From NCBI GenBank assembly GCA_036759345.1, contig DAIOUV010000005.1:56246-120245 (forward strand): 64,000 nt of DNA, read 5' to 3'. How positions within the stretch are numbered: the stretch's first letter is position 1; every line of letters begins with the position of its first letter. The notes below the pieces were generated by a model that had not been told where the DNA came from, made no database searches, and was given only the letters and a program-made list of their open reading frames with translations. The position numbers and the translations under genes were made by a program. Positions 10,131-47,985 of the stretch are shown here, one piece after another. Source of the stretch: Acidobacteriota bacterium (lineage in GTDB: Bacteria; Acidobacteriota; Thermoanaerobaculia; UBA5066).

Positions 10131-11555
10131 ATGAGCCGCTCCCTCGAGGAGTTCCGCCCCGTCCGCCCGGGAAAGATCGGCCTCTACACGTGCGGTCCCA
10201 CCGTCTACAACCGGGTGCACATCGGCAACCTCAGGACGTTCGTCTGGGAAGACGTGATGTGCCGCGTCTTCCGCGCCCTCGGCTACGAGACGACGCAGGT
10301 GATGAACCTCACGGACATCGACGACAAGACGATCCGGGGCGCCGTGGCCGCCTCTCTGCCGCTTCGCGCGTTCACGGACCCGCACATCGCGACGTTCTTC
10401 GAGGACCTCGGGACGCTCGGCGTCGTGCCGGCGGCGCTCTATCCGCGCGCCACCGAGCACATCCCCGAGATGGTCACGCTCGTCAAGCAGCTCGCCGCCC
10501 GCGGGCACACGTACGAGAGCGACGGTTCGGTCTGGTTCCGGATCTCGACGTTTCCGGGCTACGGGAAGCTCTCGAAGATCGACCTCACGGCCGTGAAGCG
10601 CGGCGCGCGCGTGGCCGACGACGAGTATGAGAAGGAAGACGTGCGCGACTTCGCGGTCTGGAAGGAAGCGAAGGAGGGCGAGCCCGAGTCCGCGACATGG
10701 ACCACACCGCTTGGCCGCGGGCGGCCCGGCTGGCACCTCGAATGCAGCGCCATGGCGATGAAGTACCTCGGCGAAACGCTCGACATCCACACGGGCGCCG
10801 TCGACAACATGTTCCCGCACCACGAGAACGAGATCGCGCAGAGCGAAGGCGCGACCGGAAAGACGTTCGTCAACTTCTGGCTCCACGCCGAGCACCTCCT
10901 TGTCGACGGCGAGAAGATGTCGAAGAGCAAAGGGAACTTCTACACGCTTCCCGACCTCCTCGAGAAGGGCTTCTTTCCGCGCGCGATCCGGTACCTCCTC
11001 ATTTCGGTCCCGTATCGGATGAAGCTCAACTTCACCTTCGACGGACTCAAGGCCGCGACGTCGGCTGTGGAGAGGCTGGAGTCGCTCGACCTGCGCCTTC
11101 GGGAGAATATTTCTTTGAAGGTGAACACGCCCGAGGCAGCGGGCGGGGGCTTCGCGGAGCGAGTGTCGGCGGCGCGCCGGGCGACGTTCGATGCCCTCGA
11201 AGACGACCTGAACACCGCCGGTGCCCTGGGCGCCCTCTTCTCGTTCGTGAAGGCGACGAACGTCGATCTCGAGGCGGGGCATCTCTCCGCGTCGGACGCG
11301 ACGGCCGCGCGAGGTTTACTACGAGAGATCGCCGGCGACATCTTCGGCATCATTCAGGGCACCGCCGCTGCCGAGGCGGTGGACCTCTCCCCCGATGTCG
11401 ACGAGACGTGGATCGACGCGCGCATCGTCGCCCGCAAGGCAGCCAAGAAGGCCCGGGATTTCGGGGCCGCCGATGCGATCCGCGACGAGCTCCTGGGCAA
11501 GGGAATCGTCCTCGAGGACACACCCCAGGGCGTACGCTGGAAGAGGAAGCCTTGA
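10131..11555 (+). CDS. cysS: Cysteine--tRNA ligase
   Basis: MSRSLEEFRPV…LYTCGPTVYNRVHIGNLRT (HIGH), KMSKS present, Cys-binding region. ATG at 10131; the ORF-track upstream extension is ignored. Confidence 0.9.
   Translation: MSRSLEEFRPVRPGKIGLYTCGPTVYNRVHIGNLRTFVWEDVMCRVFRALGYETTQVMNLTDIDDKTIRGAVAASLPLRAFTDPHIATFFEDLGTLGVVPAALYPRATEHIPEMVTLVKQLAARGHTYESDGSVWFRISTFPGYGKLSKIDLTAVKRGARVADDEYEKEDVRDFAVWKEAKEGEPESATWTTPLGRGRPGWHLECSAMAMKYLGETLDIHTGAVDNMFPHHENEIAQSEGATGKTFVNFWLHAEHLLVDGEKMSKSKGNFYTLPDLLEKGFFPRAIRYLLISVPYRMKLNFTFDGLKAATSAVERLESLDLRLRENISLKVNTPEAAGGGFAERVSAARRATFDALEDDLNTAGALGALFSFVKATNVDLEAGHLSASDATAARGLLREIAGDIFGIIQGTAAAEAVDLSPDVDETWIDARIVARKAAKKARDFGAADAIRDELLGKGIVLEDTPQGVRWKRKP
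11102..11125 (+). repeat. AT-rich dispersed motif copy A (forward) inside cysS
   Basis: GGAGAATATTTCTTTGAAGGTGAA; matches the consensus GGAAGATTTCTTWGAAGG…. Confidence 0.6.
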
Positions 11556-11703
11556 CACGGGCGCGCGACTTCGGGTCTACTCCAGCCGTTATGATTTTCG
11601 TTGCGCGCCACTGGCACGTGCATCACAGCTGAGCCGGCCGCGCTTCGCGCCGCCGGCCCATTGAGGTCCGGAGGCGCGCGGGTTTTCCAACGAGTACCCC
11701 CAA

Positions 11704-11733
11704 CCCCCTCCGGCCCGGAGGGGGTTTCGTTTT
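11704..11733 (+). terminator. Rho-independent terminator-like hairpin downstream of cysS
   Basis: CCCCCTCC-GGCCC-GGAGGGGG stem-loop followed by TTTCGTTTT; the U-tract overlaps the TTG start assigned to aroDE. Confidence 0.6.
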
Positions 11734-13258
11734 GGTCCTGACCGCTGGGAAAACGCTTCTCGTCGCGTCCTTCGCGCCGGCTTCGAACGCCGAGGCGCTA
11801 GGGGAGCGCGCGGCTCTCGCCGATCTGCCTCCTTCGGCCGCGGTGGAGCTGCGCCTGGACGCGATGACCGAAGAGCCCGCGTTCGGCGCGCTGCGCGCGT
11901 GCTTCGAGGGTCGGACGCTGATTGCCACCGTCCGATCCGCTGCTGAAGGAGGAGCCTTCCGGGGCAGCGAGGAAGAGGAAAAGCGCCTCCTCGGAGCCGC
12001 ACTGGCGGCGGGTTTCGATCTCGCCGACGTGGAATACCGCGGCGGGGTGCGTGCCACGCTGCTCGGTCTTCCGCCTTCAAAAGCAATTCTCTCTCTGCAT
12101 GACACGGAAGGCATCCCTGCCGACGTGAACGCAGTCGTGGCCCGGATGCTCGCGACACCGGCGCGCTTCGTGAAGGTCGTGGCGACGGCGAACGATTCCG
12201 GCGATGCCCGCCGCCTTCTCGAGCTTCAGGCCGCGAACCCCGGGGGACGCCTCGCGACGTTCGGCATGGGCGAGGCCGGGATCGCCACGCGCGTCCTCGC
12301 GCCGTATCTCGGCGCGGCGCTCGCGTACGGCGCGCTCGTCCGCGGGCGCGCCACGGCACCCGGGCAGCTTCTCGCACGCGACCTCGCCGAAATCTACGGC
12401 GTCGGCCGCGCGCGAGAGGTTTCGCGGCTCTTCGCGCTTGTGGGCGGCGTCGTCTCCCACTCCCTCTCTCCGGCGCTCCACAACGCGAATTTCGAAGCTC
12501 TCGGCCAGGACGCGCTCTACGTTCCGTTCGCGATGCGGATGCTCGGGAGGGAGCTCGAGCCGCTCGTCGCCTCGCTCGATGCGCTCGGTCTTCCCCTCGC
12601 GGGCGCCTCGGTGACGATTCCGTTCAAGGAGGAGGCCGCGCTTCTTTCGGGCTCGGCCGAGGACGGCGAGAGGGCGGTCAACACGCTACTGAGGTCGAGC
12701 GCCCCGGGCCTGCCGCTCCGGCTGCGCGCGGAAAACACCGATCGTGCGGCATTCGAGGCCGTGATTGAAGATGGTGGCGTCGCTCTCGTCCTCGGGGCGG
12801 GCGGCACGGCGAGGATCGCCATGGATGTTCTTGGAAAGAAGAAATATGAAGTCTTTCTGATGAACCGAGGCGACGAGCGCGGCGCGGCGCTTGCGAAAGC
12901 CAAGGGCGCCCATTACCTTTCTCAGAAATCCCCAAGGGCCTTTCCTCAGCCGGATGTCCTCATCAATGCGACCCCGCTTGGTCTGAAAGAGGGCGATCCT
13001 CTTCCGTGCGAGCAGAGTCTTCTTCGCCCCGGGATGCTCGTCATCGACGCACCCTATCGGGCCGGCGGAACGGAGCTCGTCCGGGCGGCGCGCGCCGTGG
13101 GGGCCCGCGTCGTGGACGGCCAGACCCTGCTCCTGCTTCAGGCCGCGGGCCAGGCGACGCTCTTCACCGGGCGGGACACGAGCCCGCGAGAGCTGCTCTT
13201 GCGTCTCGCGCCGCGCCTTCGTTCCCTGTTTTCTTCCGTCGAGGAATTTCTCCCGTGA
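11732..13258 (+). CDS. aroDE: Bifunctional 3-dehydroquinate dehydratase (type I) / shikimate dehydrogenase
   Basis: N-terminal …VELRLDAM…, FVKVV (type I DHQase, Schiff-base Lys region). C-terminal shikimate DH (…GVVSHSLSPALHNANF…, GAGGTARIA Rossmann). TTG start is the only in-frame start. Confidence 0.75.
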   Translation: MVLTAGKTLLVASFAPASNAEALGERAALADLPPSAAVELRLDAMTEEPAFGALRACFEGRTLIATVRSAAEGGAFRGSEEEEKRLLGAALAAGFDLADVEYRGGVRATLLGLPPSKAILSLHDTEGIPADVNAVVARMLATPARFVKVVATANDSGDARRLLELQAANPGGRLATFGMGEAGIATRVLAPYLGAALAYGALVRGRATAPGQLLARDLAEIYGVGRAREVSRLFALVGGVVSHSLSPALHNANFEALGQDALYVPFAMRMLGRELEPLVASLDALGLPLAGASVTIPFKEEAALLSGSAEDGERAVNTLLRSSAPGLPLRLRAENTDRAAFEAVIEDGGVALVLGAGGTARIAMDVLGKKKYEVFLMNRGDERGAALAKAKGAHYLSQKSPRAFPQPDVLINATPLGLKEGDPLPCEQSLLRPGMLVIDAPYRAGGTELVRAARAVGARVVDGQTLLLLQAAGQATLFTGRDTSPRELLLRLAPRLRSLFSSVEEFLP

Positions 13259-14889
13259 AGATCGAGCGGCCCGACCCGAATCTGCCGCGCGGCGTGCAGG
13301 CTTTTCTCTTCGACGCGGCCGAGCGCCGCCGTAAGGCGGAGGATTCCGTCGTGCGCAGGCTTCAGGACGCCGGTCTCCGCGAGGTGATCCTTCCCGTTCT
13401 CGATTTCGCGGCCCCCTATGCGGGCGTGACGGCCGAGGGAGACGAGCGCGTCTACCGGTTTCTCGACCGGCAGGGGAATACCCTCGCGCTCCGGGCGGAC
13501 TTCACGCCGATGGCCGCCCGGGTCGTCGCGCCGCGGCTCGGCGCTCTCTCCGGAGCCGTCTCCCTTTTCTATCGCGGGGACGTCGTGCGCGACGAGGAGA
13601 CCGGCGTCGGTCGCCGCCGCGAGTTCGCGCAGGTCGGCGCCGAGCGTTACGGCGACGGCCGCCCGGAGGCCGACCGCGAGATGCTCGCGTTGGCCCTCTC
13701 GTGCCTCGGCGACCTTCCGGCCACGCGCCTCAGGCTCACGCTCGGCTGGGCGGGCCTTCTCGAACGTCTGCTCACGACGCTCGCGCCGGGGTTCCGAGAG
13801 GACCGAGCGGACGGCGCGGCCGGACTCGCCGGGGCCGTGTCGGCCGCACGTGCCCGGCACGTCACGGAGCTGGAGACGCGGCTCTCTGCTGCGGGCGCCG
13901 CGCCGGTCGCCGCGGCCGAAGCCGCCCGGGCCCTCCTCGTCGGCTTCGAGCCCGCTTCGGATCTCTTCCGCCCGCCGGAGCTCGCGGGCGCGGCCGCGGA
14001 GCTCGCGCGCGCGGTCGCGATCGCGAAAGGCGCCCGGCCCGGCCTGTTGGTCGTCGTCGACCTCGCGGACGCGCCCCAGGCGCCGTATTACACGGGGCTC
14101 ACGTTCAGCGTGGACGCCGCGAACGGAGGCGGCACGATTGCCGGAGGCGGACGGTACGACGGCCTCCTCGGGCGCTTCAGCGCGGCGGCTCCCGCACTCG
14201 GCTTCTGCATCGGCCTCGAGACTCTCGGTGCCGCCACGGAGGCCGGCGACACGGGCACGCGCCCTCTGCGGATCGCGGTGGGGAAGGGCCGGCTCCTGCC
14301 GAAGGCGCTCGAAGCGCTCCGTGCCGGAGGCGCCTCGTTCGGCGAGCCCGACGGCCGGCGCCTCCTCGTGCCCTCTGCGGACGGCGCGTTCGAGCTGCTT
14401 CTCCTCAAGGACGACGACGTCCCGACCTATGTGGCCCACGGCGGAGCCGACCTGGGGATCGTGGGCAGCGACCGGGTCGCGGAAAGCGGCGAGGACGTGA
14501 CCTCTCCCGTGGAGCTTCCCTTCGGCGCCTGCCGCCTTTCCCTCATCGGCCGGGCGGGGGAGGCATTCCGCCCGAACGGCGCGCCCGTGCGTGTGGGCAC
14601 GAAGTACCGCCGCCTCGCGGCCCGTTATTTCGACGAGCGGAAGATCGCCCACGAGATCGTCCCTCTCGCGGGTTCGGTCGAGCTCGCGGCCGCCCTGAAG
14701 CTCACGGACGTCGTCGTGGATCTCATCGAATCCGGGTCCACGATGGCCGCGAACGGCCTCGCCGAGATCGAAACCATCCTCACGAGCTGCGCGACGCTCA
14801 TCCTTGGACGGGCTTCGCTCGTGGCCCGCCGGGCCGAGATCGCGGAGTTTGTCGAGCGCCTCAGGGTTCACGCGGAGGGGCGGGCATGA
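13255..14889 (+). CDS. hisZG: Fused ATP phosphoribosyltransferase regulatory subunit HisZ / catalytic subunit HisG (short form)
   Basis: N-terminal HisRS-paralogue (HisZ) region, then from ~aa 330 a HisG-S domain (…LRIAVGKGRL…, …GGADLGIVGSDRV…, …DLIESGSTMAANGL…). GTG start overlaps aroDE stop. Confidence 0.75.
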   Translation: MKIERPDPNLPRGVQAFLFDAAERRRKAEDSVVRRLQDAGLREVILPVLDFAAPYAGVTAEGDERVYRFLDRQGNTLALRADFTPMAARVVAPRLGALSGAVSLFYRGDVVRDEETGVGRRREFAQVGAERYGDGRPEADREMLALALSCLGDLPATRLRLTLGWAGLLERLLTTLAPGFREDRADGAAGLAGAVSAARARHVTELETRLSAAGAAPVAAAEAARALLVGFEPASDLFRPPELAGAAAELARAVAIAKGARPGLLVVVDLADAPQAPYYTGLTFSVDAANGGGTIAGGGRYDGLLGRFSAAAPALGFCIGLETLGAATEAGDTGTRPLRIAVGKGRLLPKALEALRAGGASFGEPDGRRLLVPSADGAFELLLLKDDDVPTYVAHGGADLGIVGSDRVAESGEDVTSPVELPFGACRLSLIGRAGEAFRPNGAPVRVGTKYRRLAARYFDERKIAHEIVPLAGSVELAAALKLTDVVVDLIESGSTMAANGLAEIETILTSCATLILGRASLVARRAEIAEFVERLRVHAEGRA

Positions 14890-16151
14890 TCAGGATCGAC
14901 GACGCGGAGGCGCGCGCGGGAAAGAAGGAGCTGGAGATTCTGCTCGCGGGCCGCCGAGGAGCCGCTCCCGACTTCGCCACGCTGAAGCAGGTATTGCCGA
15001 TCGTCGAGGACGTTTTGCGAAGAGGGAAACCCGCGCTTAGGAAATACGTGACGCGCTTCGACCCGCCGGCCGTCCGTCGCAACGCCCGTGTCGACGAGGA
15101 GTTCGCGCGCGCGTTCCGCGTCGCGCGGCGGCGCATCGAGGCCTATCACCGCAAGCAACTCGTCTCCATCTCCTCCGAGTTCTCGTTTCGGGATTCTCTC
15201 GGCGTCTCGTTCGTCGAGAAATCCGCGCCGTTCGACTCCGTGGGCGTATACGTGCCCGGAGGCCGCGCGTTCTATCCGTCCTCGCTCCTCATGGGGGTCG
15301 TACCCGCGCGCGTCGCGGGCGTGCGGCGAGTCGTTGTCGCGACGCCGCGCGGGGCGTGGGCGTCCAGCCCCGAGCTCCGCTGGGCGGCGGTCGAGCTGGG
15401 AGTCGACGAGGTGCTGCGCGCGGGAGGGGCTCACGGCATCGCCGGCCTCGTCTCCGTCTCCGGCGTCGCGAAGATCGTCGGTCCCGGAAACCGGTTCGTC
15501 GCGGCGGCGAAGCACCTCGTCTCGGGCCTCGTGGCGGTCGACATGCCGGCGGGCCCGTCGGAGGTCTTGATCGTGGTGTCAGCCGACGCCGACCCGGCTC
15601 TCGTGGCGGCGGATCTTCTCGCACAAGCCGAGCACGACCCCGACGCGAAGTGCCTGCTGTTTACGGACTCTCGGCGACTCGCAACCGCCGTGCAGGATGC
15701 AATCGCCTTGCAATTGGAGACGTTCGAAGAGACCGGTTCTTCGAAGGTGATGAGAGCGGCCCTGCGCCGCGGCGGGCGGGTCTTCCTATTCAAGGAAATC
15801 TCACGCGCCGTGTCCTTCGGTTCTGCATTTGCCGCCGAGCACGTCCAGGTGTTCGGAAAGGCCGCCGAACGCCTCTCGCCGCGGCTCCTTCCGACGGCCG
15901 GCGCCCTCTTCATCGGCGCGTCGACGCCGACCGCGCTCGGAGACTACGTTCTCGGCCCGAACCACGTGCTGCCCACCGGCGGCGCCGCGCGCAGCTTCTC
16001 GGGCCTTTCGGTGCGCGACTTCCTGCGCTGGGGCCGTTCGGTGAGCGCGCCCCCGAAAGCGGCGCGCCGCCTCGCGCCCAAGGCAGCGGTTCTGGCGCGA
16101 TTCGAGGGCCTCGTGGCCCACGCGAGCGCGCTCGACCGGAGGGCCCGGTGA
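14886..16151 (+). CDS. hisD: Histidinol dehydrogenase
   Basis: ATG overlapping hisZG stop (ATGA). …VYVPGGRAFYPSSLLM…, …QAEHDPDA…, …PNHVLPTGGAARSFSGLSV… motifs. Confidence 0.9.
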   Translation: MIRIDDAEARAGKKELEILLAGRRGAAPDFATLKQVLPIVEDVLRRGKPALRKYVTRFDPPAVRRNARVDEEFARAFRVARRRIEAYHRKQLVSISSEFSFRDSLGVSFVEKSAPFDSVGVYVPGGRAFYPSSLLMGVVPARVAGVRRVVVATPRGAWASSPELRWAAVELGVDEVLRAGGAHGIAGLVSVSGVAKIVGPGNRFVAAAKHLVSGLVAVDMPAGPSEVLIVVSADADPALVAADLLAQAEHDPDAKCLLFTDSRRLATAVQDAIALQLETFEETGSSKVMRAALRRGGRVFLFKEISRAVSFGSAFAAEHVQVFGKAAERLSPRLLPTAGALFIGASTPTALGDYVLGPNHVLPTGGAARSFSGLSVRDFLRWGRSVSAPPKAARRLAPKAAVLARFEGLVAHASALDRRAR

Positions 16152-17215
16152 CCGGCCGGCCCATTCCGGTCCGCGAGGAGATCCGGGCGCTGCGCGCGTA
16201 TCGGCTCCGACTCGAGGACGCTCCGCCTCTCCGCGCGAAGCTGGACTTCAACGAGTCGCCGTTCGACGTGCCGGAGGAGATCCGCGCGGAGGTCCTCGGA
16301 CGCATCGCCGCGAAGAGATGGGGCCGCTACCCGGAGTTCGGCGCCCCGCGCCTGAAAAAGGCGATCGCCGAGGCGATCGACCGGCAGCCCGAAGAGATCG
16401 TGGTCGGGAACGGGTCGGGTGAGGTGATTCTCGCGGCGGTCTCCGTCTTCGCGGGGGGCGGCTCTCTCGTCCTTCCGACGCCCACCTTCTCGCTCTACGG
16501 ACAGATCGCGGCGATCGCGGCGGCTCGGATCGTGGAAGTGCCGCGCACGGGGCCGGACTTCGACGTCGCCCTGGAGGCGTTCCTCGCGGCGGCGGCGCAG
16601 CCGGGCGCCGTTCCCCTCGTCTGCTCGCCGAACAACCCGACGGGCGGCGTCGTGCGGCGGGAATTCCTGGAGCGGCTGCTGGAGGCCGCCCCCGTCGTGC
16701 TCCTCGATCAGGCCTACGTGGACTTCGCCGGGCCCGGCGACGACGCCCTTTCGCTCCTCGACTCCCGCCCGAACCTCGTCGTCTTCCGGACGCTTTCGAA
16801 GGCGTACGCGGCCGCAGGATTCCGGATCGGATACGCGGTCGCGCCGCCGGAGCTCGCCCGGGAGATCGAGAAGGCCGTCCTGCCGTTCAGCGTCGACCTC
16901 GCGGCCGAGGAGCTGGCGGTCGCCGTCCTTGCGCGTCCCGACGTCGCGCGTGCCCATGTGGGCGAGATCGTGGCCGAACGGGGGCGCGTGGCCGAGGCGC
17001 TCACGGCGGCCGGCTGCCTCGTGGCCTCGTCCTCCGCGAATTTCCTCTTCGTGCGGCCGCCGGGCGACCATGCGGGGCGCGTGCGCCGGGCGCTACTCGA
17101 CAGGGGAATCCTCGTGCGCGACATGACGTCGGCGGCGCCCGGGCGCCTCCGGGTTTCGATCGGGTCCCGGGCGGAGAACGATCTCTTCCTCGAGGCGCTT
17201 GCGGAGGTTTTATGA
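16148..17215 (+). CDS. hisC: Histidinol-phosphate aminotransferase
   Basis: GTG overlapping hisD stop; class II aminotransferase, …LDFNESP…, PLP-Lys region …FRTLSKAYAAAGFRIGY…. Confidence 0.85.
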   Translation: MTGRPIPVREEIRALRAYRLRLEDAPPLRAKLDFNESPFDVPEEIRAEVLGRIAAKRWGRYPEFGAPRLKKAIAEAIDRQPEEIVVGNGSGEVILAAVSVFAGGGSLVLPTPTFSLYGQIAAIAAARIVEVPRTGPDFDVALEAFLAAAAQPGAVPLVCSPNNPTGGVVRREFLERLLEAAPVVLLDQAYVDFAGPGDDALSLLDSRPNLVVFRTLSKAYAAAGFRIGYAVAPPELAREIEKAVLPFSVDLAAEELAVAVLARPDVARAHVGEIVAERGRVAEALTAAGCLVASSSANFLFVRPPGDHAGRVRRALLDRGILVRDMTSAAPGRLRVSIGSRAENDLFLEALAEVL

Positions 17216-17808
17216 GCCGGACCGGAACGGTCGAGCGGAAGACGAAGGAGACGTCGGTGTCCCTGTCGCTGACGCTCGATGGAACGGGGCGAACGGACGT
17301 GGAGACGTCCGTCGGGTTTCTCTCCCACATGCTCGAGACGATCGCGAAGCACGCGCGCGTCGATCTCACGGTCCGGGCGTCCGGCGACGTGCACATCGAC
17401 GCCCATCACACCGTCGAGGACGTCGGCCTCGCCTTCGGCGAGGCGCTGGATCAGGCCCTCGGATCGCGCGCGGGAATCGAACGCTTCGGCGCGAGCCTCG
17501 TGCCGCTCGACGAGGCTCTCGCGCGGTCGGTCGTCGACCTCTCCGGCCGGCCGTACATCGTTTTCGAGTCGGTGGTCGACAAGGAGCTCCTCCTCGTCAC
17601 GAGCGACTTTCCGTTCGCGCTCGTCGAGGAATTCTGGAAGTCCGCCGCGTTCCGGGGCAAGTTCAACCTCCACGTGGACGTGATCCGCGCCCGGAACGGC
17701 CATCACGCTGCCGAGGCGGTCTTCAAATCGGCCGCTCGGGCGCTGCGCCAGGCCATGGCGATCACGGGTTCCGAGGTCCTCTCGACGAAGGGGACGCTGA
17801 CGGCATGA
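17212..17808 (+). CDS. hisB: Imidazoleglycerol-phosphate dehydratase
   Basis: ERKTKETSVSLSL…DAHHTVEDVGLAFGEAL…AAEAVFKSAARAL canonical IGPD motifs. Confidence 0.92.
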   Translation: MSRTGTVERKTKETSVSLSLTLDGTGRTDVETSVGFLSHMLETIAKHARVDLTVRASGDVHIDAHHTVEDVGLAFGEALDQALGSRAGIERFGASLVPLDEALARSVVDLSGRPYIVFESVVDKELLLVTSDFPFALVEEFWKSAAFRGKFNLHVDVIRARNGHHAAEAVFKSAARALRQAMAITGSEVLSTKGTLTA

Positions 17809-18434
17809 GCGAAGCTTCGGCGCCGGCGGTCACGCTCGTGGACTATGGGGTCGGTAACACGGCCTCCGTCGTTCGCGCGTTCCGCCGGCTCGGCGCCGAG
17901 GTGGACTTCACGGCTGATCTCGACCGGGTGGCGTCCGCCCGCCGCCTCGTTCTGCCCGGCGTCGCCGCGTTCGCCCCGGCGATGAACCGGTTGCTCGAGA
18001 CCGGCCTCGAATCGGCCGTGCGGGCCGCGGTGAAGCGGGGCGGACGCCTCCTCGGGCTGTGCCTGGGGTTCCAGCTCCTCTTCGAGGAGAGCGAGGAACA
18101 CGGCGTTCACAGAGGACTCGGCCTCGTGCCGGGCCGGGTCGGCCCTTTTCCCGGTGGCGTGCGAACGCCTCACGTGGGCTGGAACCAGCTCCTCGCGCGC
18201 CGTTCGGACGGTTTCGTCGAGGGGCTGGCGGAAGGGAGCTTCGTCTACTTCGTGCACTCCTACCGTCCCGAGGGCACCGAAGCCGCCGACGTGGCCGCGG
18301 CCTGCGACCACGGCGGAGAGTTCCCGGCGATCGTGCAGCGCGGGAACGTCTGGGGCTGCCAGTTCCACCCGGAGAAGTCGTCGGAGAACGGCCGGCTCCT
18401 GCTCTCGAATTTCCTCCGGGAGGACGCGGCGTGA
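17805..18434 (+). CDS. hisH: Imidazole glycerol phosphate synthase, glutamine amidotransferase subunit
   Basis: [10 protein letters not shown]…[11 protein letters not shown]…HVGWN…CQFHPEKS class I GATase triad. Confidence 0.9.
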
Positions 18435-19219
18435 GCGGCGGCCGGCTCGCGCTATGGCCCGCGATCGACCTCATGGGTGGACGCGTGGTCCGGCTGCTCC
18501 AGGGCAAGCGCGAGGCCGTTACGTTCTACGACGAGCCGCCGGCCGAGGCCGCGAAGCGATTTGCGGCGGAAGGCGCCGACGGCATTCACGTCGTGGACCT
18601 CGATGCCGCTTTCGGAGCGGAAAACAACCGGAACAACCGGAAAGAGATCGACGAAATTCTTTCTGTTTCGGAGGCTTTCGGGATGGCAGTGCAGGTTGGG
18701 GGAGGTTTCCGGTCGCAGGAGGCAGTGGAAGATTTCTTAGAAGGGGTGAGTACCGCTCGGGCTGTTGTCGGCAGCTTGCCATTCCTCGACCGCCCCGCCT
18801 TCATTCACCTTCTAAGAAAATCTTCCTTTCCTTCTCTGGCGTCCCGCATCGTCGTTGCCCTCGACTGCAAGGATGGCCGCCCGACGGTGCGCGGGTGGAC
18901 CGAGGACGCGGGAGCGGGCGACGCCGTGTCGGTGGCCCGTTCGTTCGCCGCTCTCGGCGTCGGTACGTTGCTCGTCACGGACGTCGCGTGCGACGGAGCG
19001 ATGACGGGCCCGAACCTCGGACTTCTCTCCGCCGTGCGCGCCGTGTTCGCGGGCGAGATTCTGGCGTCAGGCGGCATGCGCGGCGAAGAAGATCTCGCCG
19101 CCGTCGACCGCGCGCTCGCGGGCGGGCCCCGCGGCGCCATCTTCGGCCGCGCGTTGCACGGCGGAGCCACGACCGTGGCGAAGCTCAAGGCGGCGCGGGA
19201 TCTCGGGAGGTCTTCATGA
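18431..19219 (+). CDS. hisA: ProFAR isomerase (1-(5-phosphoribosyl)-5-[(5-phosphoribosylamino)methylideneamino]imidazole-4-carboxamide isomerase)
   Basis: [15 protein letters not shown]…QVGGGFRS…[15 protein letters not shown]…; contains an internal 22-bp inverted repeat pair and a TTA codon (see findings). Confidence 0.88.
18727..18750 (+). repeat. AT-rich dispersed motif copy B (forward) inside hisA
   Basis: GGAAGATTTCTTAGAAGGGGTGAG; contains TTA codon; inverted partner at 18806-18827. Confidence 0.75.
18806..18827 (-). repeat. AT-rich dispersed motif copy C (reverse) inside hisA
   Basis: TCACCTTCTAAGAAAATCTTCC = reverse complement GGAAGATTTTCTTAGAAGGTGA; ~21/22 match to copy B. Confidence 0.75.
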
Positions 19220-20658
19220 CCCTCGCCGTGCGCGTTATTCCGTGCCTGGACGTCGCGGACGGCCGCGTCGTGAAGGGCGTCTCGTTCGAGCACCTCCGCG
19301 ACGCGGGGGATCCGGTCGAGGCGGCCGCGCGCTACGAGGCCGAGGGGGCCGACGAGGTGGCCTTCCTCGACATCGCGGCCGCGCAGGAGAAGCGGGGGAC
19401 GCTCGTGGAGCTCGTGGGGCGCGTGGCCGAGGCGCTGTCGATTCCCTTCACCGTGGGCGGCGGCGTGCGCTCCGTGGAGGACGCGGACGCACTCCTGAGA
19501 GCCGGCGCCGACCGGGTCACGGTGAACACGGCCGCGGTCGAGGACCCCTCCCTTATCACGCGCCTCGCCGAGCGCTTCGGGGCGCAGTGTGTCGTCGTCG
19601 CGATCGACGGAAAGCGGCTGCGCGATCCGAACGGGCTCGCGGTGATGCGCGTGACGACCCATGGCGGGAGGCGTCCGGTCGACCGCACGGTGACGTCCTG
19701 GGCGGCCGCGGCGGCCGCGGCGGGTGCCGGAGAGATCCTGCTCACGTCCGTCGACGCGGATGGCACCTTGGCGGGGTTCGATCTCGAAATGCTGCGCGCC
19801 GTGCGCTCCGTCGTCGACGTGCCGGTCGTGGCCTCGGGAGGCGCGGGCCGGCTCGATGATTTCGCGAAGGCGGTTCTCATCGGGGGCGCCGACGCCGTGC
19901 TCGCGGCATCCGTCTTCCACGACCGTCTCTTCACGGTCGGCGCGGTCAAAGAGGCGATGCGGCGGGCCGGCCTCCCGGTGCGTCCCGCGCCGGCCCACGC
20001 GCGCACGCTGCTTCCCCGCTACGACCAGAACGGGCTCGTTCCAGTGATCACGCGGGACGTTGCGACCGGCAAAGTCCTCACGCTCGCGTGGGCGAACGCG
20101 GACGCGATCGCGAAGACGCGCGAGACTGGCCTCGCGCATTTTTACAGCCGGTCCCGGAAGGCGCTGTGGCGGAAGGGGGAGACCTCGGGGAACATCCAGC
20201 GCGTCGCGGGAATTTCCATCGACTGCGATGCCGACGCCGTGCTGTACGACGTGCGCCCGTCTGGTCCCGCCTGCCACACGGGAGCGGAATCGTGCTTTAC
20301 GCGCGTGGAGAGCTTCGACGCGGTCGACCTTCCGGAGGCGACCTCTTTGGACGCCGATGGGCTCGACCTCACCGAGCTCTTCGCCGTCGTGAGGGACCGG
20401 AAGGAGTCGCCCGTCGCGGGCTCCTATACGAACAGGCTCCTCGACGACGGGGTCGCGCGCATCGCCCAGAAAGTGGGGGAGGAAGCCGTCGAGACGGCGC
20501 TCGCGTCGGTGACGGGCGACGGCAACGCCCTCGCGGGAGAGGCGGCGGATCTTCTCTATCATCTCGTGGTCCTTCTCACGGCGCGCGGGGTCGCGCCGGG
20601 CGATGTCGCCGCGAGACTCGCCGAGCGCCGAGGCGCCGCCAGGCGCGAGAAGCCGTGA
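19216..20658 (+). CDS. hisF-hisIE: Trifunctional fusion: imidazole glycerol phosphate synthase cyclase subunit HisF / phosphoribosyl-AMP cyclohydrolase HisI / phosphoribosyl-ATP pyrophosphatase HisE
   Basis: HisF (…[16 protein letters not shown]…VGGGVRS…) ~255 aa, in-frame continuation into HisI (…[21 protein letters not shown]…GETSGNIQ…CHTG…) and HisE (…LYHLVVLL…) with no intervening stop in the 480-aa ORF. Confidence 0.75.
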
Positions 20659-22031
20659 AGCGCCTCCATCGCCTCGTCGTGGTCGAGCGGCCGGCGGACC
20701 TCACGACTCCGGTGGCCCTCATGCGCGGCCTTCTCGCGGGAGACGGGCCGTGCTTCCTTCTCGAATCGGTCGAGGGCGGCGACCGCGTGGCGCGGTGGTC
20801 CTTTCTCGGGGCGTCGCCCTCGGGAGAGATCTCCGGCCGGGATACGGACCCGTTCGCCGCCCTCAGGGCGCTGCCTCGCGACGAGGCCGCGAGCGGGGAA
20901 GACGACCTTCCGCCCTTCACCGGAGGAGCGGTCGGGTACGCGGGCTACGACGCCGTGCGGCGCCTCGAGCGTCTCCCGGCGACGAACCCCGACCCGATCG
21001 GACTGCCGGACGCGTGGTTCGGGATCTTCGACGCGGTCATCGCCTTCGACCACGTGCGGCACCGCCTCCTCTTCGTGACGCACGCTGCGAATGGCGACGA
21101 AGCCTCCGCGCGCTCCCGTCTGAAAGCGCTCGAGAAGCGGGCGCTCACCCGGAGCGGCAAAACGCGCTCAAAGCCTCTGTCTCCTCTTACTTTCGAAGAA
21201 TCTTCTCCCCGTGCTTTCTACCTCGCCGCGGTCGAGCGAGCGAAAGAGCACATCCGCGCGGGCGACGTCTTCCAGGTCGTCCTCTCGCGCCGCTGGTCCG
21301 CGCCCTTTGACGGCGACCCGTTCGCGGTCTACCGGGCGCTGCGGTCTATCAGCCCGTCGCCGTACCAGTACTTCCTGAGGACGCCGGACGGCACGATCTT
21401 CGGGGCCTCGCCCGAGCGTCTCGTGCGCGTCGCGGCGGCCCCCGGCGGCGCAATCGTGGAGACGATCCCTCTCGCGGGCACCCGCCCGCGCGGCGCGACG
21501 CGTGAAGAAGACCTCGCGCTTGAGAAGGAGCTCCTCGCCGATCCGAAGGAGCGCGCGGAGCACGTGATGCTCGTGGATCTCGGGAGAAACGACCTCGGCC
21601 GCGTCGCGAAGGCCGGGAGCGTGCGCGTGAAAGACTTCTTCCGCGTCGAGCGCTATTCCCATGTCATGCACATCGCCTCGCGCGTGACCGGCGTTCTCGC
21701 CGAGGGGAAGGACGCCGTCGACGCCCTAGTGGCGACGTTTCCGGCCGGGACGCTGACGGGAGCGCCCAAAATACGCGCGATGGAGATCATCGAGGACCTC
21801 GAGCCGGTGAGGCGCGGAGCCTACGGCGGCACAGTGGGCTACCTCGACTTCGCAGGAAACCTCGACGTGGCCATCGCGATCCGGACGGCCGTCGTCGCGA
21901 ACGGCACTCTCCACGTGCAGGCCGGCGCCGGCATCGTCGCCGACTCGGACCCGGAGGCCGAAGCCACCGAGTGCGAGAACAAGGCGCGCGCTCTCATGCG
22001 TGCGGTGGAAGAGGCGGGGACGTACCGATGA
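20655..22031 (+). CDS. trpE: Anthranilate synthase component I
   Basis: GTG overlapping hisF-IE stop; …LLESVEGG…, …SPERLVRV…, …[12 protein letters not shown]… chorismate-binding signature. Confidence 0.88.
21183..21208 (-). repeat. Degenerate reverse-orientation motif copy J inside trpE
   Basis: CCTCTTACTTTCGAAGAATCTTCTCC; weaker match (CCTCTT tail + TTCGAAGAATCTTC core). Confidence 0.35.
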
Positions 22032-22597
22032 TCCTCGTCGTCGACAACTACGACTCCTTCACCTACAACCTCGTCCAGATCCTCTCCATGTTCGACGGCG
22101 ACGTGCGCGTCGTACGAAACGACGCGCTCACCGTGGACGCGGTCCTTGCCGCGAAGCCGGATCGGCTCGTCGTGTCTCCGGGGCCGGGCCGGCCGGAAGA
22201 CGCGGGAATCTCGTGCGAACTGATCCGCCGGAACGACCGCATCCCGCTGCTCGGCGTCTGTCTCGGCCATCAGGCCCTCGGGGCCGTGTTCGGCGGAACG
22301 GTTTCCCGCGCGCCGGTCCTCATGCACGGCAAGACCTCGGAAATCGCGCACGAGGGGACGGGGATCTTCGCGGGGCTCCCGAACCCTTTCACGGCCACGC
22401 GATACCACTCCCTCATCGTGGAGCGGGATTCGGTTCCGGCGGCGCTCAGGATCACCGCCACGACCGAAGACGGGCTCGTGATGGGCCTCGCCCATCGGAC
22501 TCTCCCTCTCGTGGGCGTGCAGTTCCATCCCGAGTCGATTCTCACGAAGGAGGGGGAGCGGCTCCTGAAGAACTTCGTGGACGGGCGGCTCGCATGA
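22028..22597 (+). CDS. trpG: Anthranilate synthase component II (glutamine amidotransferase)
   Basis: [17 protein letters not shown]…GVCLGHQALG…QFHPESI; ATG overlaps trpE stop. Confidence 0.9.
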   Translation: MILVVDNYDSFTYNLVQILSMFDGDVRVVRNDALTVDAVLAAKPDRLVVSPGPGRPEDAGISCELIRRNDRIPLLGVCLGHQALGAVFGGTVSRAPVLMHGKTSEIAHEGTGIFAGLPNPFTATRYHSLIVERDSVPAALRITATTEDGLVMGLAHRTLPLVGVQFHPESILTKEGERLLKNFVDGRLA

Positions 22598-23631: not shown

Positions 23632-23643
23632 ACGCGCCCGAGA

Positions 23644-23670
23644 GGAAGATTTCTTTGAAAGGGAAGAGGG
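23644..23670 (+). repeat. AT-rich dispersed motif copy D (forward) overlapping trpCF RBS
   Basis: GGAAGATTTCTTTGAAAGGGAAGAGGG immediately upstream of the GTG start of trpCF. Confidence 0.7.
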
Positions 23671-23671
23671 C

Positions 23672-26330: not shown

Positions 26331-27145
26331 ATCCTGTGAATCGAATTGGGCGGGCCTTCGCGAAGGCTCGGGCCTCCGGACGGGCGGCGCTGATCGTCTT
26401 CGTCGAGGCGGGCGATCCCGATCTCGGCACGACCCGCCGGCTTCTTCCGGAGCTCGCGGAGGCGGGGGCCGACGTGATCGAGCTCGGGATCCCGTTCAGC
26501 GATCCGCTCGCGGACGGGCCCGTGATCCAGCGCGCGAGCGAACGCGCGCTCGCCGCGGGAACGACGCTTGGAGGCGCGCTCGGCGTCCTCGCCGAGCTGC
26601 GCGCCGCGCGCTTCGCGACGCCCGTCGTGATCTTCAGCTATGCGAATCCGATCCTCGCGATGGGGGAGGCCGAGTTCGCGAACCGGGCGGCGGAGGCGGG
26701 CGCGGACGGCGTTCTCGTGACCGACCTCCCGCCGGAAGAGGGCCGCCCCTTCGCGTCGGTTCTGAAGAGCGCGAAGCTCGATCCCGTCTACCTCGTCGCG
26801 CCCACGTCGCCGGACGAGCGCATCCGCAGGGCCGGGTCGCTCTCGCGCGGCTTTCTCTACGTCGTATCGCGGGCGGGCATAACGGGCGCGCGCGCGGCCC
26901 TGCCCGAGGGGCTCCTTGCTCTCGTGTCTCGCGTGCGGCAGCAGGTGCCGCGTCTCCCGGTCGCGGTGGGCTTCGGCGTCTCGACGCCGGAGCAGGTCGG
27001 AGAGGTCGCCTCACTTGCGGACGGCGTCGTCGTGGGGAGCGCGGTCGTGGCCGCGATGGAAGCGGCCCGCGCGGCCGGCCGGGATCCCGTCGAAGCGGCG
27101 GCCGCCTTCGTCCGCGCCCTCGCGGCGGCCACGCCGAAAGGCTGA
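26327..27145 (+). CDS. trpA: Tryptophan synthase alpha chain
   Basis: …[13 protein letters not shown]…[21 protein letters not shown]… ; TTG at 26327 overlapping trpB stop or GTG at 26336. Confidence 0.85.
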
Positions 27146-27146
27146 C

Positions 27147-37582: not shown

Positions 37583-38237
37583 GCCTCGAGAGGATAGCGT
37601 GCCCTGCCGCCGACCGCTCCCCGCCTCCTTCTATCGCCGCGACACCGAAGTCGTCGCGCGCGATTTGCTGGGCTGCCGGCTCACCCGGCGGCTGCCGGAC
37701 GGGAGCACGCGGTCCGTGATCCTGGTCGAGACGGAGGCCTACCTCGGCGTGAAGGACCGCGCGGCGCACACGTGGAACGGCCGCCGCACCGCCCGCGTCG
37801 AGCCCATGTGGGGGGAAGGCGGCTACGCCTACGTCTACTTCGTCTACGGGATGCACTTCTGCCTGAACGTCGTGACACGGCGGGCGGGCGTGCCGGAGGC
37901 CGTGCTGCTCAGGGCGGGGGTTCCCGAGGAGCTGTGGAGCGAATCGCGCCGGGCCCCCTCTTTACCTTCTAAGAAAATTCCCGGTTTTCTCCTCGCTGCC
38001 GGCCCCGCGAAGCTCTGCGAGTACCTTCATGTCACGAAGGAGCTGACCGGAATTTCTCTTTCCGGCCCGGAGCTCATTCTGTCCCGCGGTCCGCGCGCGC
38101 GATTCGACGTGCTTACCGGGTCGCGCGTCGGCGTGGACTACGCGGGAGAGACCGCGGCCTGGCCGCTGCGCTTTGCGGTGGCGGACTGTCCGGCGGTGAC
38201 GTGGCGCCGCCGGTTGCTTATTCCTACAGCGTCTTGA
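37581..38237 (+). CDS. mpg: DNA-3-methyladenine glycosylase (AAG/Mpg family)
   Basis: …LPASFYRRDTEVVARDLLGCRL…VILVETEAYLG…DRAAHTWNGRRTAR…GGYAYVYFVYGMHFCLNVV…. Confidence 0.75.
   Translation: MPREDSVPCRRPLPASFYRRDTEVVARDLLGCRLTRRLPDGSTRSVILVETEAYLGVKDRAAHTWNGRRTARVEPMWGEGGYAYVYFVYGMHFCLNVVTRRAGVPEAVLLRAGVPEELWSESRRAPSLPSKKIPGFLLAAGPAKLCEYLHVTKELTGISLSGPELILSRGPRARFDVLTGSRVGVDYAGETAAWPLRFAVADCPAVTWRRRLLIPTAS
37956..37984 (-). repeat. AT-rich dispersed motif copy G (reverse) inside mpg
   Basis: CCCTCTTTACCTTCTAAGAAAATTCCCGG; shares CCTTCTAAGAAAAT core with copy C and CCTCTT tail with copy F. Confidence 0.65.
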
Positions 38238-44793: not shown

Positions 44794-44806
44794 TTTCGAA
44801 CCGGAC

Positions 44807-46201: not shown

Positions 46202-46524
46202 GGCTTCGCCTGAAAGACGGTCGCAGGATCGACGCCGTAGCCGAGGCCGACCTTCCGGACGTCGAAAAGCGCCTTCTGCGTGTCGCGCACGGCGTGCCTC
46301 ACCTCGAGGCGCTGCTCGGGGGTGAGGCGGGCGGGCGTCGCGGAGAGCGCCGCTTCGATGAGCGCTTCGGTACGAGCATCCGCGATTTCCCGGGAGGACG
46401 CCGCGGACGGGTCAGCGGCGTCGGTACGCCTTGGGAGCCAAACCGCGGCTGCGGCGCCTCCGAGGGTCTTCGCGAGCGCGCGGCGGGAGATTCCGGTGGG
46501 CTTCGAGGTGCCGGATTCGTTCAT
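46198..46524 (-). CDS. Small Tat-signal protein, translationally coupled to the amidase
   Basis: MNESGTSKPTGISRRALAKTLGGAAAAVWLP… twin-arginine motif SRRxLAK + hydrophobic stretch; an upstream in-frame ATG at 46554 is the alternative start; stop overlaps amidase start. Confidence 0.55.
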   Translation of the reverse strand: MNESGTSKPTGISRRALAKTLGGAAAAVWLPRRTDAADPSAASSREIADARTEALIEAALSATPARLTPEQRLEVRHAVRDTQKALFDVRKVGLGYGVDPATVFQAKP

Positions 46525-46611
46525 GGAGGGAATCCTATTCGATATAGAATCCATTGTTCGCCGCCGCGCATGGGCCGCCCGCGCGCGAGGTTGGACCCCT
46601 CTTCACTTTCA

Positions 46612-47985
46612 ATGAAACACCCTCTTCCTCTTTCCCTTCCCTCCGTGGGCATCGTGTCGCTCGGATGCCCCAAGAACCTCGTAGACACCGAGGTGATGCT
46701 GGGGCATCTGCAGCGCGAAGGATTGACCCTGACGGATCCGGAGAGATCGCGCGTCGTCATCGTGAACACCTGCGGCTTCATCGACTCGGCGAAGGAGGAG
46801 TCCGTCAGCGCGATTCTCCGCGAGGTCGCGCGCAAGGAGGCGGGGGAGATCGATCGCGTGATCGTGGCGGGCTGCATGGTGCAGAAGTACGGGAGAGAGC
46901 TCGCCGCCGAGATCCCCGAGGTCGATCACTTCATCGGCCTCGACGAGCTGGAGAAGGCGCCGGCCGCCGCGCTCGGCCTCCCGTCGCTGCCGCGCTTCAG
47001 CGACAAGCCGCTTGCGACCCGGCTCTACGACGACCTCGCGCCGCGCGTCCTCACGCACCGCAAGGGCTACGCGTATCTGAAGGTGGCCGAGGGCTGCAAC
47101 AACCCGTGCACGTTCTGCACGATTCCCCAGATGCGCGGCCTCATGCGCTCGCGCACGATTGCGTCGCTCGTGAAAGAAGCGCAGAGCCTCGAGGAGAGGG
47201 GCGTGAAGGAGCTCGTCCTCATTTCGCAGGACACGACCCGCTACGGCGAGGACCTCGGGCTTGGCCGGACCGGGCTCACGGCGCTCGTGACGGCCCTCCT
47301 CGCCGAGACGTCGTTCCCGTGGGTCCGCTTCCTCTACGCGTACCCGAAGACGCTTCACGCCTCGGTGTTCGAGCTGATGTCGAAGTCGCCCCGATTCGTC
47401 CCCTACGTCGACATGCCGCTCCAGCACGTCTCGAAGAAGATCCTCACGGCGATGAAGCGCGGCGGCGACCCGGCGAGCTACCTCAAGCAGTTCGCCCGGA
47501 TCCGTGAGGTCGTCCCGGACATCGCTCTTCGCTCGACGTTCATCGTGGGCTTCCCCGGGGAGAAAGACGAAGATTTCTTGGAAGTGAAAGAGTTCCTCGA
47601 GGCCGTGCGCTTCGACAACGCGGGCGTCTTCACATACTCACCGGAACCGGGCTCGGGAGCCGAGCCGCTCGGGGACCCAGTTCCTTTCGAAGAAAAATCT
47701 TCGCGCCGCGTGGCCCTCATGGAGCTCCAGCAGAAGATTTCCCTTTCGAAGAATCGCGCGAAGCGCGGCAAATCGTTCGACGCCCTCCTCGAAGGGCCCT
47801 GTGAGGAGACCGAGATGCTCCTCGAGGCCCGCCTCGGGAGCCAGGCCCCGGAGATCGACGGGCGCGTCCTCATCAACGAAGTGCCCGAGGGCTGGACGCC
47901 GCGCGTCGGGGAGATCGTGCGCGTGAAGATCACCGAGGCGCACGCCTACGATCTCGTTGGACGGGTCATCGCCCCGGTCGCTTAA
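46612..47985 (+). CDS. rimO: Ribosomal protein S12 methylthiotransferase
   Basis: …VGIVSLGCPKNLVDTEVM…, radical-SAM …VAEGCNNPCTFCTIP…, …FPGEKDEDF…, C-terminal TRAM domain. Confidence 0.88.
   Translation: MKHPLPLSLPSVGIVSLGCPKNLVDTEVMLGHLQREGLTLTDPERSRVVIVNTCGFIDSAKEESVSAILREVARKEAGEIDRVIVAGCMVQKYGRELAAEIPEVDHFIGLDELEKAPAAALGLPSLPRFSDKPLATRLYDDLAPRVLTHRKGYAYLKVAEGCNNPCTFCTIPQMRGLMRSRTIASLVKEAQSLEERGVKELVLISQDTTRYGEDLGLGRTGLTALVTALLAETSFPWVRFLYAYPKTLHASVFELMSKSPRFVPYVDMPLQHVSKKILTAMKRGGDPASYLKQFARIREVVPDIALRSTFIVGFPGEKDEDFLEVKEFLEAVRFDNAGVFTYSPEPGSGAEPLGDPVPFEEKSSRRVALMELQQKISLSKNRAKRGKSFDALLEGPCEETEMLLEARLGSQAPEIDGRVLINEVPEGWTPRVGEIVRVKITEAHAYDLVGRVIAPVA
47566..47592 (+). repeat. AT-rich dispersed motif copy H (forward) inside rimO
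   Basis: GACGAAGATTTCTTGGAAGTGAAAGAG; encodes the conserved DEDFLE of the MTTase. Confidence 0.6.
47683..47703 (-). repeat. AT-rich dispersed motif copy I (reverse) inside rimO
   Basis: CCTTTCGAAGAAAAATCTTCG = reverse complement CGAAGATTTTTCTTCGAAAGG; ~90 bp downstream of copy H. Confidence 0.55.

Follow-up and report, generated by a model that had tools for sequence, protein, structure and literature searches.

A lineage-specific AT-rich repeat forms convergent pairs within and between genes of Thermoanaerobaculia

In a 64,000-nt stretch of a high-GC bacterial genome (contig DAIOUV010000005.1; hereafter the window), we find a family of short AT-rich repeats that occurs mostly as convergent pairs, in which two conserved arms enclose 50–200 bp of ordinary DNA that is unrelated from one pair to the next. 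Homologues of TrpCF place the window in a metagenome-assembled genome (MAG) of the Acidobacteriota, class Thermoanaerobaculia. The initial annotation of the window had described dispersed copies of the motif in housekeeping genes; it had overlooked that the copies form convergent pairs and that the family is intergenic as much as genic. We propose, tentatively and in the knowledge that it could well prove wrong, that the pairs are putative paired recognition sites on double-stranded DNA for a lineage-specific protein.

The consensus of the repeat is (GAAGAG)n-GAAGATTT(T)CTTAGAAGG-TGAAGAGGGG, ∼27 bp long and AT-rich in a genome of ∼70% GC. Each arm is asymmetric, with a length-variable purine microsatellite of the GAAGAG type often found on its outer side and a G-rich inner end. 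Self-complementarity within the arm consensus GAAGATTT(T)CTTAGAAGGTGAAGAGGGG is limited to 4 bp or less (AAGA/TCTT), and the arms lack a GTAG or CGTC tag. The sequence GGAAGATTTCTTWGAAGG has 6 matches in the window at a tolerance of three mismatches, compared to 0 in 100 dinucleotide shuffles. Similarly, in the codon-preserving control that the initial annotation had proposed, in which synonymous codons were shuffled within each gene so that protein sequence and codon usage were preserved, the mean number of GGAAGATTTCTTWGAAGG matches was 1.7 (maximum 5; observed 6) and that of an 11-mer core was 5.7 (maximum 12; observed 14), and none of the 300 shuffles was as high as the observed count in either case. 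Dinucleotide and synonymous-codon shuffles thus rule out chance or a codon-usage artefact. Sites were detected with an nhmmer profile and then with a 24-nt weight matrix built from 146 non-identical copies. The cut-off of 9 bits yields 2 false positives in ∼900 kb of shuffled sequence, but 413 sites in ∼900 kb of Thermoanaerobaculia DNA; the window itself holds 18, or ∼1 per 3.6 kb.

The family extends well beyond the window. An exact-match scan of one genome per species returned at least 119 loci. Among the 119 matches listed, 94 are on high-GC Thermoanaerobaculia/Acidobacteriota contigs from at least 26 assemblies, and the other 25 are chance matches in AT-rich genomes. The loci are scattered over contigs of 2.4–3.9 Mb, and the density outside the selected matches is 1 site per 3.8 kb, so that a 4-Mb genome would have ∼1,000 sites. 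Relatives with 92, 77, 73 and 66% TrpCF identity have AT-rich patches at the same positions of syntenic his-trp loci (hisD, hisA, trpE, the trpD-trpC junction, trpC and trpF). By contrast, the outgroup L008 (59% TrpCF identity, GC 73%) has no AT-rich patch with the motif, and only one weak site of 10.1 bits in 21 kb. All of the sequences compared are MAGs, and genes outside the window were called with a home-made codon-usage caller; however, the repeat is present in Illumina, hybrid and Nanopore assemblies of independent projects and is therefore not an assembly artefact. A phage or mobile origin was considered and rejected: all 25 matches in viral contigs are chance matches at a GC content of 0.56 or less, with none in viral contigs of matching GC, and no transposase-sized unit lies between distant arms. 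In a separate observation, L067 (CP070783.1, GC 0.61), a genome labelled Deltaproteobacteria, matches the core exactly at one unpaired site (14.9 bits), which could be due to chance or to mislabelling of the genome.

The arms are arranged in a single polarity. Among neighboring sites within 300 nt of each other, 142 are convergent, 33 tandem and only 8 divergent, and 74% of all sites belong to a convergent pair. Many apparently single copies do have a partner: 56 of the 106 copies that are unpaired at the profile threshold have a site of at least 12 bits at the convergent position, compared to none of the 106 at the divergent position used as a control (P = 5 × 10−17). The purine-rich outer ends of paired arms point outward. 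A convergent pair looks identical from either strand, so that a reading of either one meets the purine-rich arm before its partner. The median centre-to-centre spacing is 94 bp (5–95% range 63–196 bp, mode 72–77 bp). The distribution is cut off sharply near 60 bp at its lower end, and no spacing below about 50 bp was found. In contrast to the arms, the interiors of more than 50 pairs, which are about 30–150 nt long, are unrelated in sequence and show no more structure than shuffled sequences. The interiors in hisA and trpF align residue for residue with the outgroup, and that of HisA also with the Escherichia coli protein. Where convergent arms are 0.4–3 kb apart, ordinary genes and no transposase lie between them. 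The outer flanks of a pair are inverted complements, a purine tract against a pyrimidine tract, and not direct repeats.

Of the 407 sites that could be classified, 247 (∼60%) lie within called open reading frames (ORFs). Nevertheless, the number of sites per kb is 0.31 in coding sequence compared to 1.13 in divergent spacers, 2.41 in co-directional spacers and 3.27 in convergent spacers, and spacers at gene 3′ ends are 8–10 times denser in sites than are genes. In spacers, the forward arm typically starts 0–40 nt past the upstream stop codon, and the TAG of the motif itself appears to be the stop codon of the upstream gene in some cases. Pairing is also a feature of genic sites, 70% of which are in convergent pairs (spacing 30–300 bp), and genic arms are oriented evenly with respect to the gene (53:53). 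Host genes in an early sample included RsmE, PrmA, TsaC, MnmA, QueA, PheT, CysS, RimO and the his and trp genes, an apparent enrichment that raised the idea of a regulon for translation and amino-acid genes; we do not claim this enrichment, as the densest extra locus turned out to be a molybdate-transporter/ApbE region and the other hosts are miscellaneous.

Within genes, the DNA of the motif is translated in different frames, and the frame that would create a stop codon (TAG in the forward arm, TAA in the reverse arm) is under-used, with 7 and 8 copies compared to 31/15 and 31/14 in the other frames. The copies that do occur in this frame always have TTG or TCG in place of TAG, whereas TAG is retained in 78% of intergenic copies and in 74–100% of copies in the other frames. 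The claim of the initial annotation that conservation is at the level of nucleic acid is borne out by this pattern, and also by codon choice. We compared codons in seven his-trp genes of four genomes, at columns in which the amino acid is identical, and found a codon ending in A or T in all four genomes at 13 of 40 arm columns but at only 39 of 2040 columns elsewhere (odds ratio 24.7, P = 2 × 10−12). Full codon identity is 55% in arms and 44% in the background, a difference that is not significant (P = 0.20). The identity of orthologous sequences is, for genic copies, 83.7% in the arms, compared to 74.4% in the coding interiors and 77.4% in the flanks, and for non-genic copies it is 77.4% in the arms and 70.9% in the interiors. 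Thus, the arms are held moderately but clearly at the nucleotide level against strong pressure for GC at third codon positions.

The initial annotation had also considered the residues encoded by the motif to be native. This is the case for the hisA forward arm and the trpF forward arm of the window, which differ in length from the outgroup by +1 and 0 residues, respectively, but not for the other arms, which add 3–16 residues relative to the outgroup, including length-variable poly-Ser runs or purine microsatellite tracts. Some arms have thus been written over existing codons, as the initial annotation had proposed, and others are small insertions that expand by slippage.

The most serious alternative to a site on double-stranded DNA, although we consider it unlikely, is that the pairs form long-range hairpins in RNA (or single-stranded DNA), with a stem between the purine-rich arm of the transcript and the pyrimidine-rich arm that follows it, to give an intercistronic or intragenic signal for processing, stability, termination or translational coupling. 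Hairpin signals of such kinds have been shown for REP, ERIC and Correia elements. A hairpin would explain why pairs are convergent only, since the purine arm comes first and the pyrimidine arm second on both strands, and indeed the arms of an element folded in isolation pair in ∼95% of cases, with stems of 17–26 bp. Sites are densest downstream of stop codons and in spacers of the convergent and co-directional types and, among spacers, sparsest in the divergent, promoter-bearing ones. This distribution is consistent with a hairpin, as is the arm between trpD and trpC, which holds the Shine-Dalgarno sequence of trpC and has its partner 190 nt inside trpC, the classical layout for translational coupling. 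If base pairing were what is conserved, however, the two arms of a pair would covary, and they do not: identity within pairs is 0.614 compared to 0.615 between pairs (permutation P = 0.54, n = 136). Watson-Crick pairs could form at only 61% of arm positions, and the mismatches in the mRNA sense show only a weak excess of G•U over A•C (210:174, P = 0.07). Since the two arms are conserved toward one consensus without compensation, we infer that the constraint is on the sequence and relative orientation of the arms rather than on pairing. In its GC-rich context, moreover, the trpF region of L007 is no more stable than shuffles (z = 0.39), so that the AU-rich arms add no detectable folding. Ribosomes would melt hairpins in translated ORFs, yet the intragenic pairs are the conserved ones, and pairs closer than about 50 nt are lacking even though a hairpin would favor short loops. 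The selected RNA structure suggested by the initial annotation is therefore not supported, and a known RNA family was likewise discarded, as there is no Rfam match at gathering thresholds.

An intrinsic, possibly bidirectional, terminator is a special case of this alternative that we rejected. Such a terminator has a GC-rich stem and a short loop with a U tract immediately behind; unstructured loops of 30–150 nt make poor intrinsic terminators, and the long interiors are no more structured than shuffles. A terminator scan of 10.5–25.5 kb was at background level, with 12 matches compared to 9.6 expected and one small match inside an arm region. The window does have a canonical intrinsic terminator after cysS (11702–11726), with an 11-bp GC-rich stem, a 3-nt loop and a T-rich tail; ordinary terminators therefore coexist with the repeat family. 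No sigma-70-like promoter sites were found in the same 10.5–25.5 kb, and a promoter role was likewise discarded.

A second alternative, which we regard as quite unlikely, is that the motif does nothing for the cell, being a selfish element or a by-product of mutation, and that selection only removes harmful copies, such as those that create stops or lie in promoters. The arms would be remnants or products of a sequence-specific enzyme, for instance a transposase (RAYT-like or other) that acts in trans, or of templated patch repair or template switching with biased gene conversion, a process that generates and homogenizes inverted copies next to existing ones. The geometry resembles that of terminal inverted repeats, in that the outer and inner ends of an arm are fixed, and copies are clustered locally, with 12 of the 18 window sites in the hisD-trpCF his-trp genes (15.7–24.8 kb) and 12 sites in 8 kb of L022. 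The outer microsatellite tracts differ in length between orthologues, and the host genes have no common function. REPIN-RAYT systems are reported to be inherited vertically and to remain at orthologous positions. However, the arms flank no transposase-sized element, convergent pairs 0.4–3 kb apart enclosing ordinary genes, and viral contigs of matching GC have no copies. Because the interiors are unique, the pair is not a replicating unit, and target-site duplications are absent, given that the outer flanks complement each other in inverted orientation. Divergence is slower in the arms than in the coding DNA next to them, and AT-rich codons persist there despite GC pressure, which is not expected of a by-product, and template switching alone predicts divergent pairs as numerous as convergent ones.

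The initial annotation compared the motif to DNA uptake signals of the USS type of Pasteurellaceae and the DUS type of Neisseriaceae, and a motif spread by biased uptake during competence and by homologous recombination is an explanation that we consider improbable. DUS and USS are clade-specific sequences with hundreds to thousands of copies that are enriched in intergenic regions and terminators, often as inverted repeats, and whose coding copies occupy permissive reading frames only and avoid those that encode stops (bioRxiv 10.1101/2025.10.24.684340); all of these features are common to the repeat family. As with USS and DUS, a clade-specific oligonucleotide has been written into the core genome, coding sequence included, with a bias in frame, avoidance of the stop frame and intergenic inverted repeats at gene ends. 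A recent tract of apparent recombination of ∼350 bp, seen by comparison with a relative of 98.5% identity, begins at the trpF forward arm, but this is the only such tract seen and its other end is not at an arm. The comparison fails chiefly on pairing. A single motif suffices for uptake, with lone copies in either orientation within genes and inverted pairs confined to terminators, while pairing here is near-obligate and includes ORFs; the pairing of 70% of genic sites is not predicted by any uptake model. No effect of relative orientation on uptake is known, yet convergent pairs outnumber divergent ones by 142 to 8. In addition, the conserved part is 18–27 nt compared to 9–12 nt, 2–3 times longer than known uptake cores, the interiors are long and unique, and the density of 1 per 3.6 kb is below that of uptake signals in Neisseria and Haemophilus, which is ∼1 per kb.

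Finally, the arms could be sites of a global site-specific invertase and the pairs invertons, including intragenic ones that recode genes or switch them off, and although inverted repeats around short unique segments between and within genes, a minimum spacing of ∼50–60 bp (5th percentile 63 bp) that would be in keeping with what recombinase synapsis allows, and the rarity of the deletion-prone tandem arrangement (33 compared to 142 convergent) would all fit, this is very improbable, as a flipped interior of hisA, trpC or trpF would destroy a conserved catalytic barrel, the coding orientation is found in all assemblies examined, invertons cluster in promoter regions while divergent spacers are the least dense in sites among spacers, and inversion leaves the large excess of convergent over divergent pairs unexplained. 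A search for the inverted hisA junction found 0 inverted alleles, but with the normal junction in only 2 contigs it had no power.

If, as we favor, the pairs are paired recognition sites on duplex DNA, a sequence-specific and lineage-specific protein would engage both arms of a pair at once. Of the three functions put forward by the initial annotation, a binding site for a protein on DNA is thus the best fit. The candidate reader might be a factor that acts on the nucleoid or on DNA topology, a role proposed for REP/BIME elements, or a domesticated protein that resembles a transposase or recombinase and brings ends into synapsis. The arms would be maintained by selection or by a conversion-type homogenization and not by transposition of the unit. 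In operons that lack spacers, the arms lie in tolerant loops of ORFs, replacing or adding a few codons and altered just enough to avoid stops. The floor in spacing near 60 bp resembles a limit on the joining of two duplex sites, where a hairpin would favor short loops.

Several observations weigh against this proposal. We found no candidate reader protein, and the site is a predicted one. The arms can pair when the element is folded by itself, and the gradient in density from convergent to co-directional to divergent spacers to coding sequence fits a transcript-level element at gene 3′ ends equally well. As the difference in full codon identity is not significant, the conservation signal is moderate. 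Most comparative loci were gathered by exact match to the consensus, which tilts the sample toward well-kept copies and biases copy quality and pairing frequencies upward, although the site density in unselected parts of these loci (1 per 3.8 kb) agrees with that of the window. Lastly, the periodicity in spacing of ∼11–12 bp that would be expected for looping is not robust, with P = 3 × 10−4 for 119 clusters and P = 0.23 after stricter removal of orthologues, a step that may over-merge loci via low-complexity purine tracts. It is because no reader protein has been identified and because the two spacing-phase tests differ that our preference for paired sites on DNA is a tentative one.

The sites in the window illustrate the range of contexts. 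Gene identities were checked with Pfam for cysS, the aroD-aroE fusion, hisD, trpE, mpg and a rimO-like radical-SAM gene, and were taken for hisA and trpCF from precomputed Pfam families of syntenic loci and of TrpCF homologues. The strong copies reported in the initial annotation are all found where it had placed them, although its list lacked the sites in aroD-aroE, hisD and the Mrr gene and the site at the rimO start codon, and its ‘weaker copy’ at 47731 in rimO, which scores below 9 bits (nhmmer E = 1.4), is not supported. One convergent pair is in hisA (18728–18824), in which a forward arm, GGAAGATTTCTTAGAAGGGGTGAG (centre 18739, 28.9 bits), and a reverse arm, CACCTTCTAAGAAAATCTTCC (centre 18813, 40.8 bits), are separated by a centre spacing of 74 bp and an interior of native HisA residues; the sequence CACCTTCTAAGAAAATCTTCC is identical in all five genomes (5/5). 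Upstream in the same gene, GATCGACGAAATTCTTTCTGTTTC (18641–18676, minus strand) encodes 10 residues and is tentatively a degenerate arm of the reverse type, in which the AT-ending codons are retained in 5/5 genomes; the forward arm that would be its partner, at the hisH/hisA junction, is plainly recognizable in L001 but has decayed in the window. A weak convergent pair in hisD (15731–15803; centres 15742 forward, 11.6 bits, and 15792 reverse, 9.3 bits) has strong orthologues in L001 and L007, and a single reverse arm in trpE (21180–21206, minus strand, centre 21195, 18.9 bits) is found at the same place in L001, L003, L005 and L007.

Two further pairs involve trpCF. The forward arm at 23645–23671 (plus strand, centre 23656, 35.0 bits) is the copy that the initial annotation, with its position given as 23644, assigned to the trpC ribosome-binding site; it does carry that site, as its inner end GGGAAGAGGG is the Shine-Dalgarno sequence of trpC (GTG start at 23672), but its location is intergenic, in the trpD-trpC spacer. 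Its partner is a reverse arm region inside trpC (23833–23890, minus strand) with two overlapping weak sites (centres 23848 and 23878; 11.5 and 11.8 bits), which encodes 14 residues and is an insertion of 10–16 residues relative to the outgroup. The trpF half has a convergent pair at 24628–24785 (forward 24639, 26.8 bits; reverse 24774, 15.9 bits), with an interior that corresponds to a native beta-alpha-beta unit of TrpF. In L007 (10960–11270) this trpF pair is doubled on both sides in nested order, where the window has one arm of each type; the forward-type arms encode GRLLRMKAKGE and RGFLRMKDE and the reverse-type arms SQESFSS and PSKKSFSS. The window and L003 are 98.5% identical over 21.5 kb, and 89 of their 319 differences are in one ∼350-bp block (window 24600–24990, ∼25% divergence), which runs from the trpF forward arm to beyond the reverse arm and has the appearance of a short segment acquired by recombination with a diverged relative.

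Outside the his-trp genes, a convergent pair lies in the aroE half of the aroD-aroE fusion (12822–12933; forward 12833, 14.1 bits; reverse 12922, 26.0 bits) and another in the rimO-like gene (47569–47700), where the forward arm (centre 47580, 21.6 bits) encodes DEDFLEVKE and the reverse arm (centre 47689, 18.9 bits) PFEEKSS. A reverse arm also covers the start of the rimO-like gene (46596–46622, minus strand, centre 46611, 22.2 bits), and its altered centre, TTCAATGAAA, provides the ATG start codon. The remaining arms are single. The best match in the window is a reverse arm in mpg (37955–37981, minus strand, centre 37970, 42.1 bits; Pfam Pur_DNA_glyco), which has no partner within 260 nt, as is true of the forward arm AGAATATTTCTTTGAAGGTGAACA in cysS (11105–11131, plus strand, centre 11116; Pfam tRNA-synt_1e). 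The cysS arm has the TTG variant because TAG would fall in frame. An arm of 13.8 bits (4631–4657, minus strand, centre 4646) lies within a gene for an Mrr-type restriction endonuclease (4196–5113, minus strand; Pfam Mrr_cat/Mrr_N).

The his and trp genes form one tightly packed supraoperon (13255–27734) with 4-bp gene overlaps and with aroD-aroE just upstream; it includes the fusions hisZ-hisG, hisF-hisIE and trpC-trpF, and its gene order is kept in all relatives examined, the motif-free outgroup included. Other AT-rich patches in the window do not match the repeat family. These are a near-palindrome upstream of the rimO-like gene, AATCCTATTCGATATAGAATCCATTGTTC (46531–46559), which may be a promoter or operator, and the sequences TTCGTAATATAACGATTGTGTTGA (52541–52564) and TCAATCAATTGCTGAAGTTTCATTAC (60079–60104).

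Many TrpCF database entries (P0029, P0072–P0083 and P0086–P0094) are only 377–436 residues long and are without the N-terminal 79–103 residues, which had led us to suspect interrupted genes, bypassing or recoding. This idea was dropped: the ORF is intact in the DNA behind entry P0074, and in L153 (2652–3000) the frame is intact from a GTG just after the forward arm, the gene caller having begun downstream of the AT-rich arms. The AT-rich arms therefore systematically mislead gene callers, such that genes in these MAGs are truncated or split. The Nanopore-derived L154 (1–7245) has fused and split trp genes, with a TrpE-G-D product of 734 residues and fragments of TrpB and TrpA; its apparent frameshifts are most likely errors, and it is therefore uninformative on the integrity of ORFs at arms.

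The family is most like a REP/BIME-type chromosomal element that, by analogy, may have spread into coding sequence under constraints similar to those on USS. The REP/BIME and REPIN-RAYT systems of Proteobacteria also have hundreds to about a thousand short copies per genome at similar density, form inverted doublets of fixed polarity, occur mainly downstream of genes and between cistrons and seldom in promoter spacers, and are inherited vertically and retained at orthologous positions; for REP/BIME the proposed roles are as protein-bound (gyrase, IHF) or mRNA-stabilizing elements. However, the REP unit is a short imperfect palindrome with a GTAG/CGTC tag, whereas the arms here are non-palindromic, untagged and AT-rich in a 70% GC genome. 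The REPIN doublet replicates with a conserved spacer, while spacers here are unique and about 30–150 nt, and REP is extragenic, while ∼60% of sites here are within ORFs and some replace codons without a change in length. REPIN systems have a cognate single-copy RAYT gene (a Y1/HUH transposase), usually flanked by repeats. We saw no RAYT and no transposase among ∼50 proteins from 8–21-kb genome pieces compared to Pfam, although no genome-wide search for RAYT was made.

Other known repeats are further removed. As the initial annotation had judged, the family is not a classical MITE or RPE, since only the arms are conserved, the interiors are native and some arms replace codons. A MITE is conserved as a whole element, with terminal inverted repeats, a target-site duplication and a related autonomous insertion sequence (IS). 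RPEs are similarly tolerated in protein-coding genes, where they are translated in several frames as surface-loop peptides, but they are insertions of 100–150 bp conserved as a whole, in contrast to two short arms around the sequence of the gene itself, of which some (hisA forward, +1; window trpF forward, 0) replace codons rather than add them. HIP1 of cyanobacteria is likewise a lineage-specific motif over-represented in coding sequence and retained at the nucleotide level, but it is an 8-bp perfect palindrome, GCGATCGC, that is not paired, does not favor gene 3′ ends and occurs in far greater numbers. Several other resemblances were considered but found no support: heat-shock-element-like GAA/TTC spacing, CodY, ArgR and Fur boxes, integron attC sites, an IS5 terminal repeat (which has GAAGGTG in common), splice-site-like AG|GTGAGT, (ARN)n binding by TRAP or Hfq, and Topo I or primase sites. 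Full-text literature searches with the motif string and for Thermoanaerobaculia repeats, REPIN/RAYT in Acidobacteria and repeats within coding sequences did not find the family described.

Dispersed bacterial repeats are usually either extragenic (REP, REPIN and most MITEs) or short words within genes (USS/DUS, HIP1 and Chi). Here, a long oriented site is combined with strict convergent pairs around arbitrary DNA and with routine residence in essential genes, in which the arms are retained at the nucleotide level across genera. No bacterial repeat family described so far matches this set of features, and the chance that the family is a new class of cis-element is a fair one. The clade is an uncultured soil lineage, for which the arms are usable as a simple sequence marker. 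It is possible, if doubtful, that the about 400–500 pairs in each genome form a previously unrecognized class of chromosomal ‘bracket’, in which two oriented sites for protein recognition, superimposed on coding sequence if need be, would mark or clamp segments of 50–200 bp and would be read, for example, by a domesticated transposase or recombinase or by a loop-forming nucleoid protein. If so, such pairs would constitute a second layer of DNA-level information inside essential genes across a whole bacterial class. If a protein does read the pairs, they would represent a new way of organizing or marking the bacterial chromosome and a clear case in which overlapping, non-protein information constrains the sequences of enzymes.

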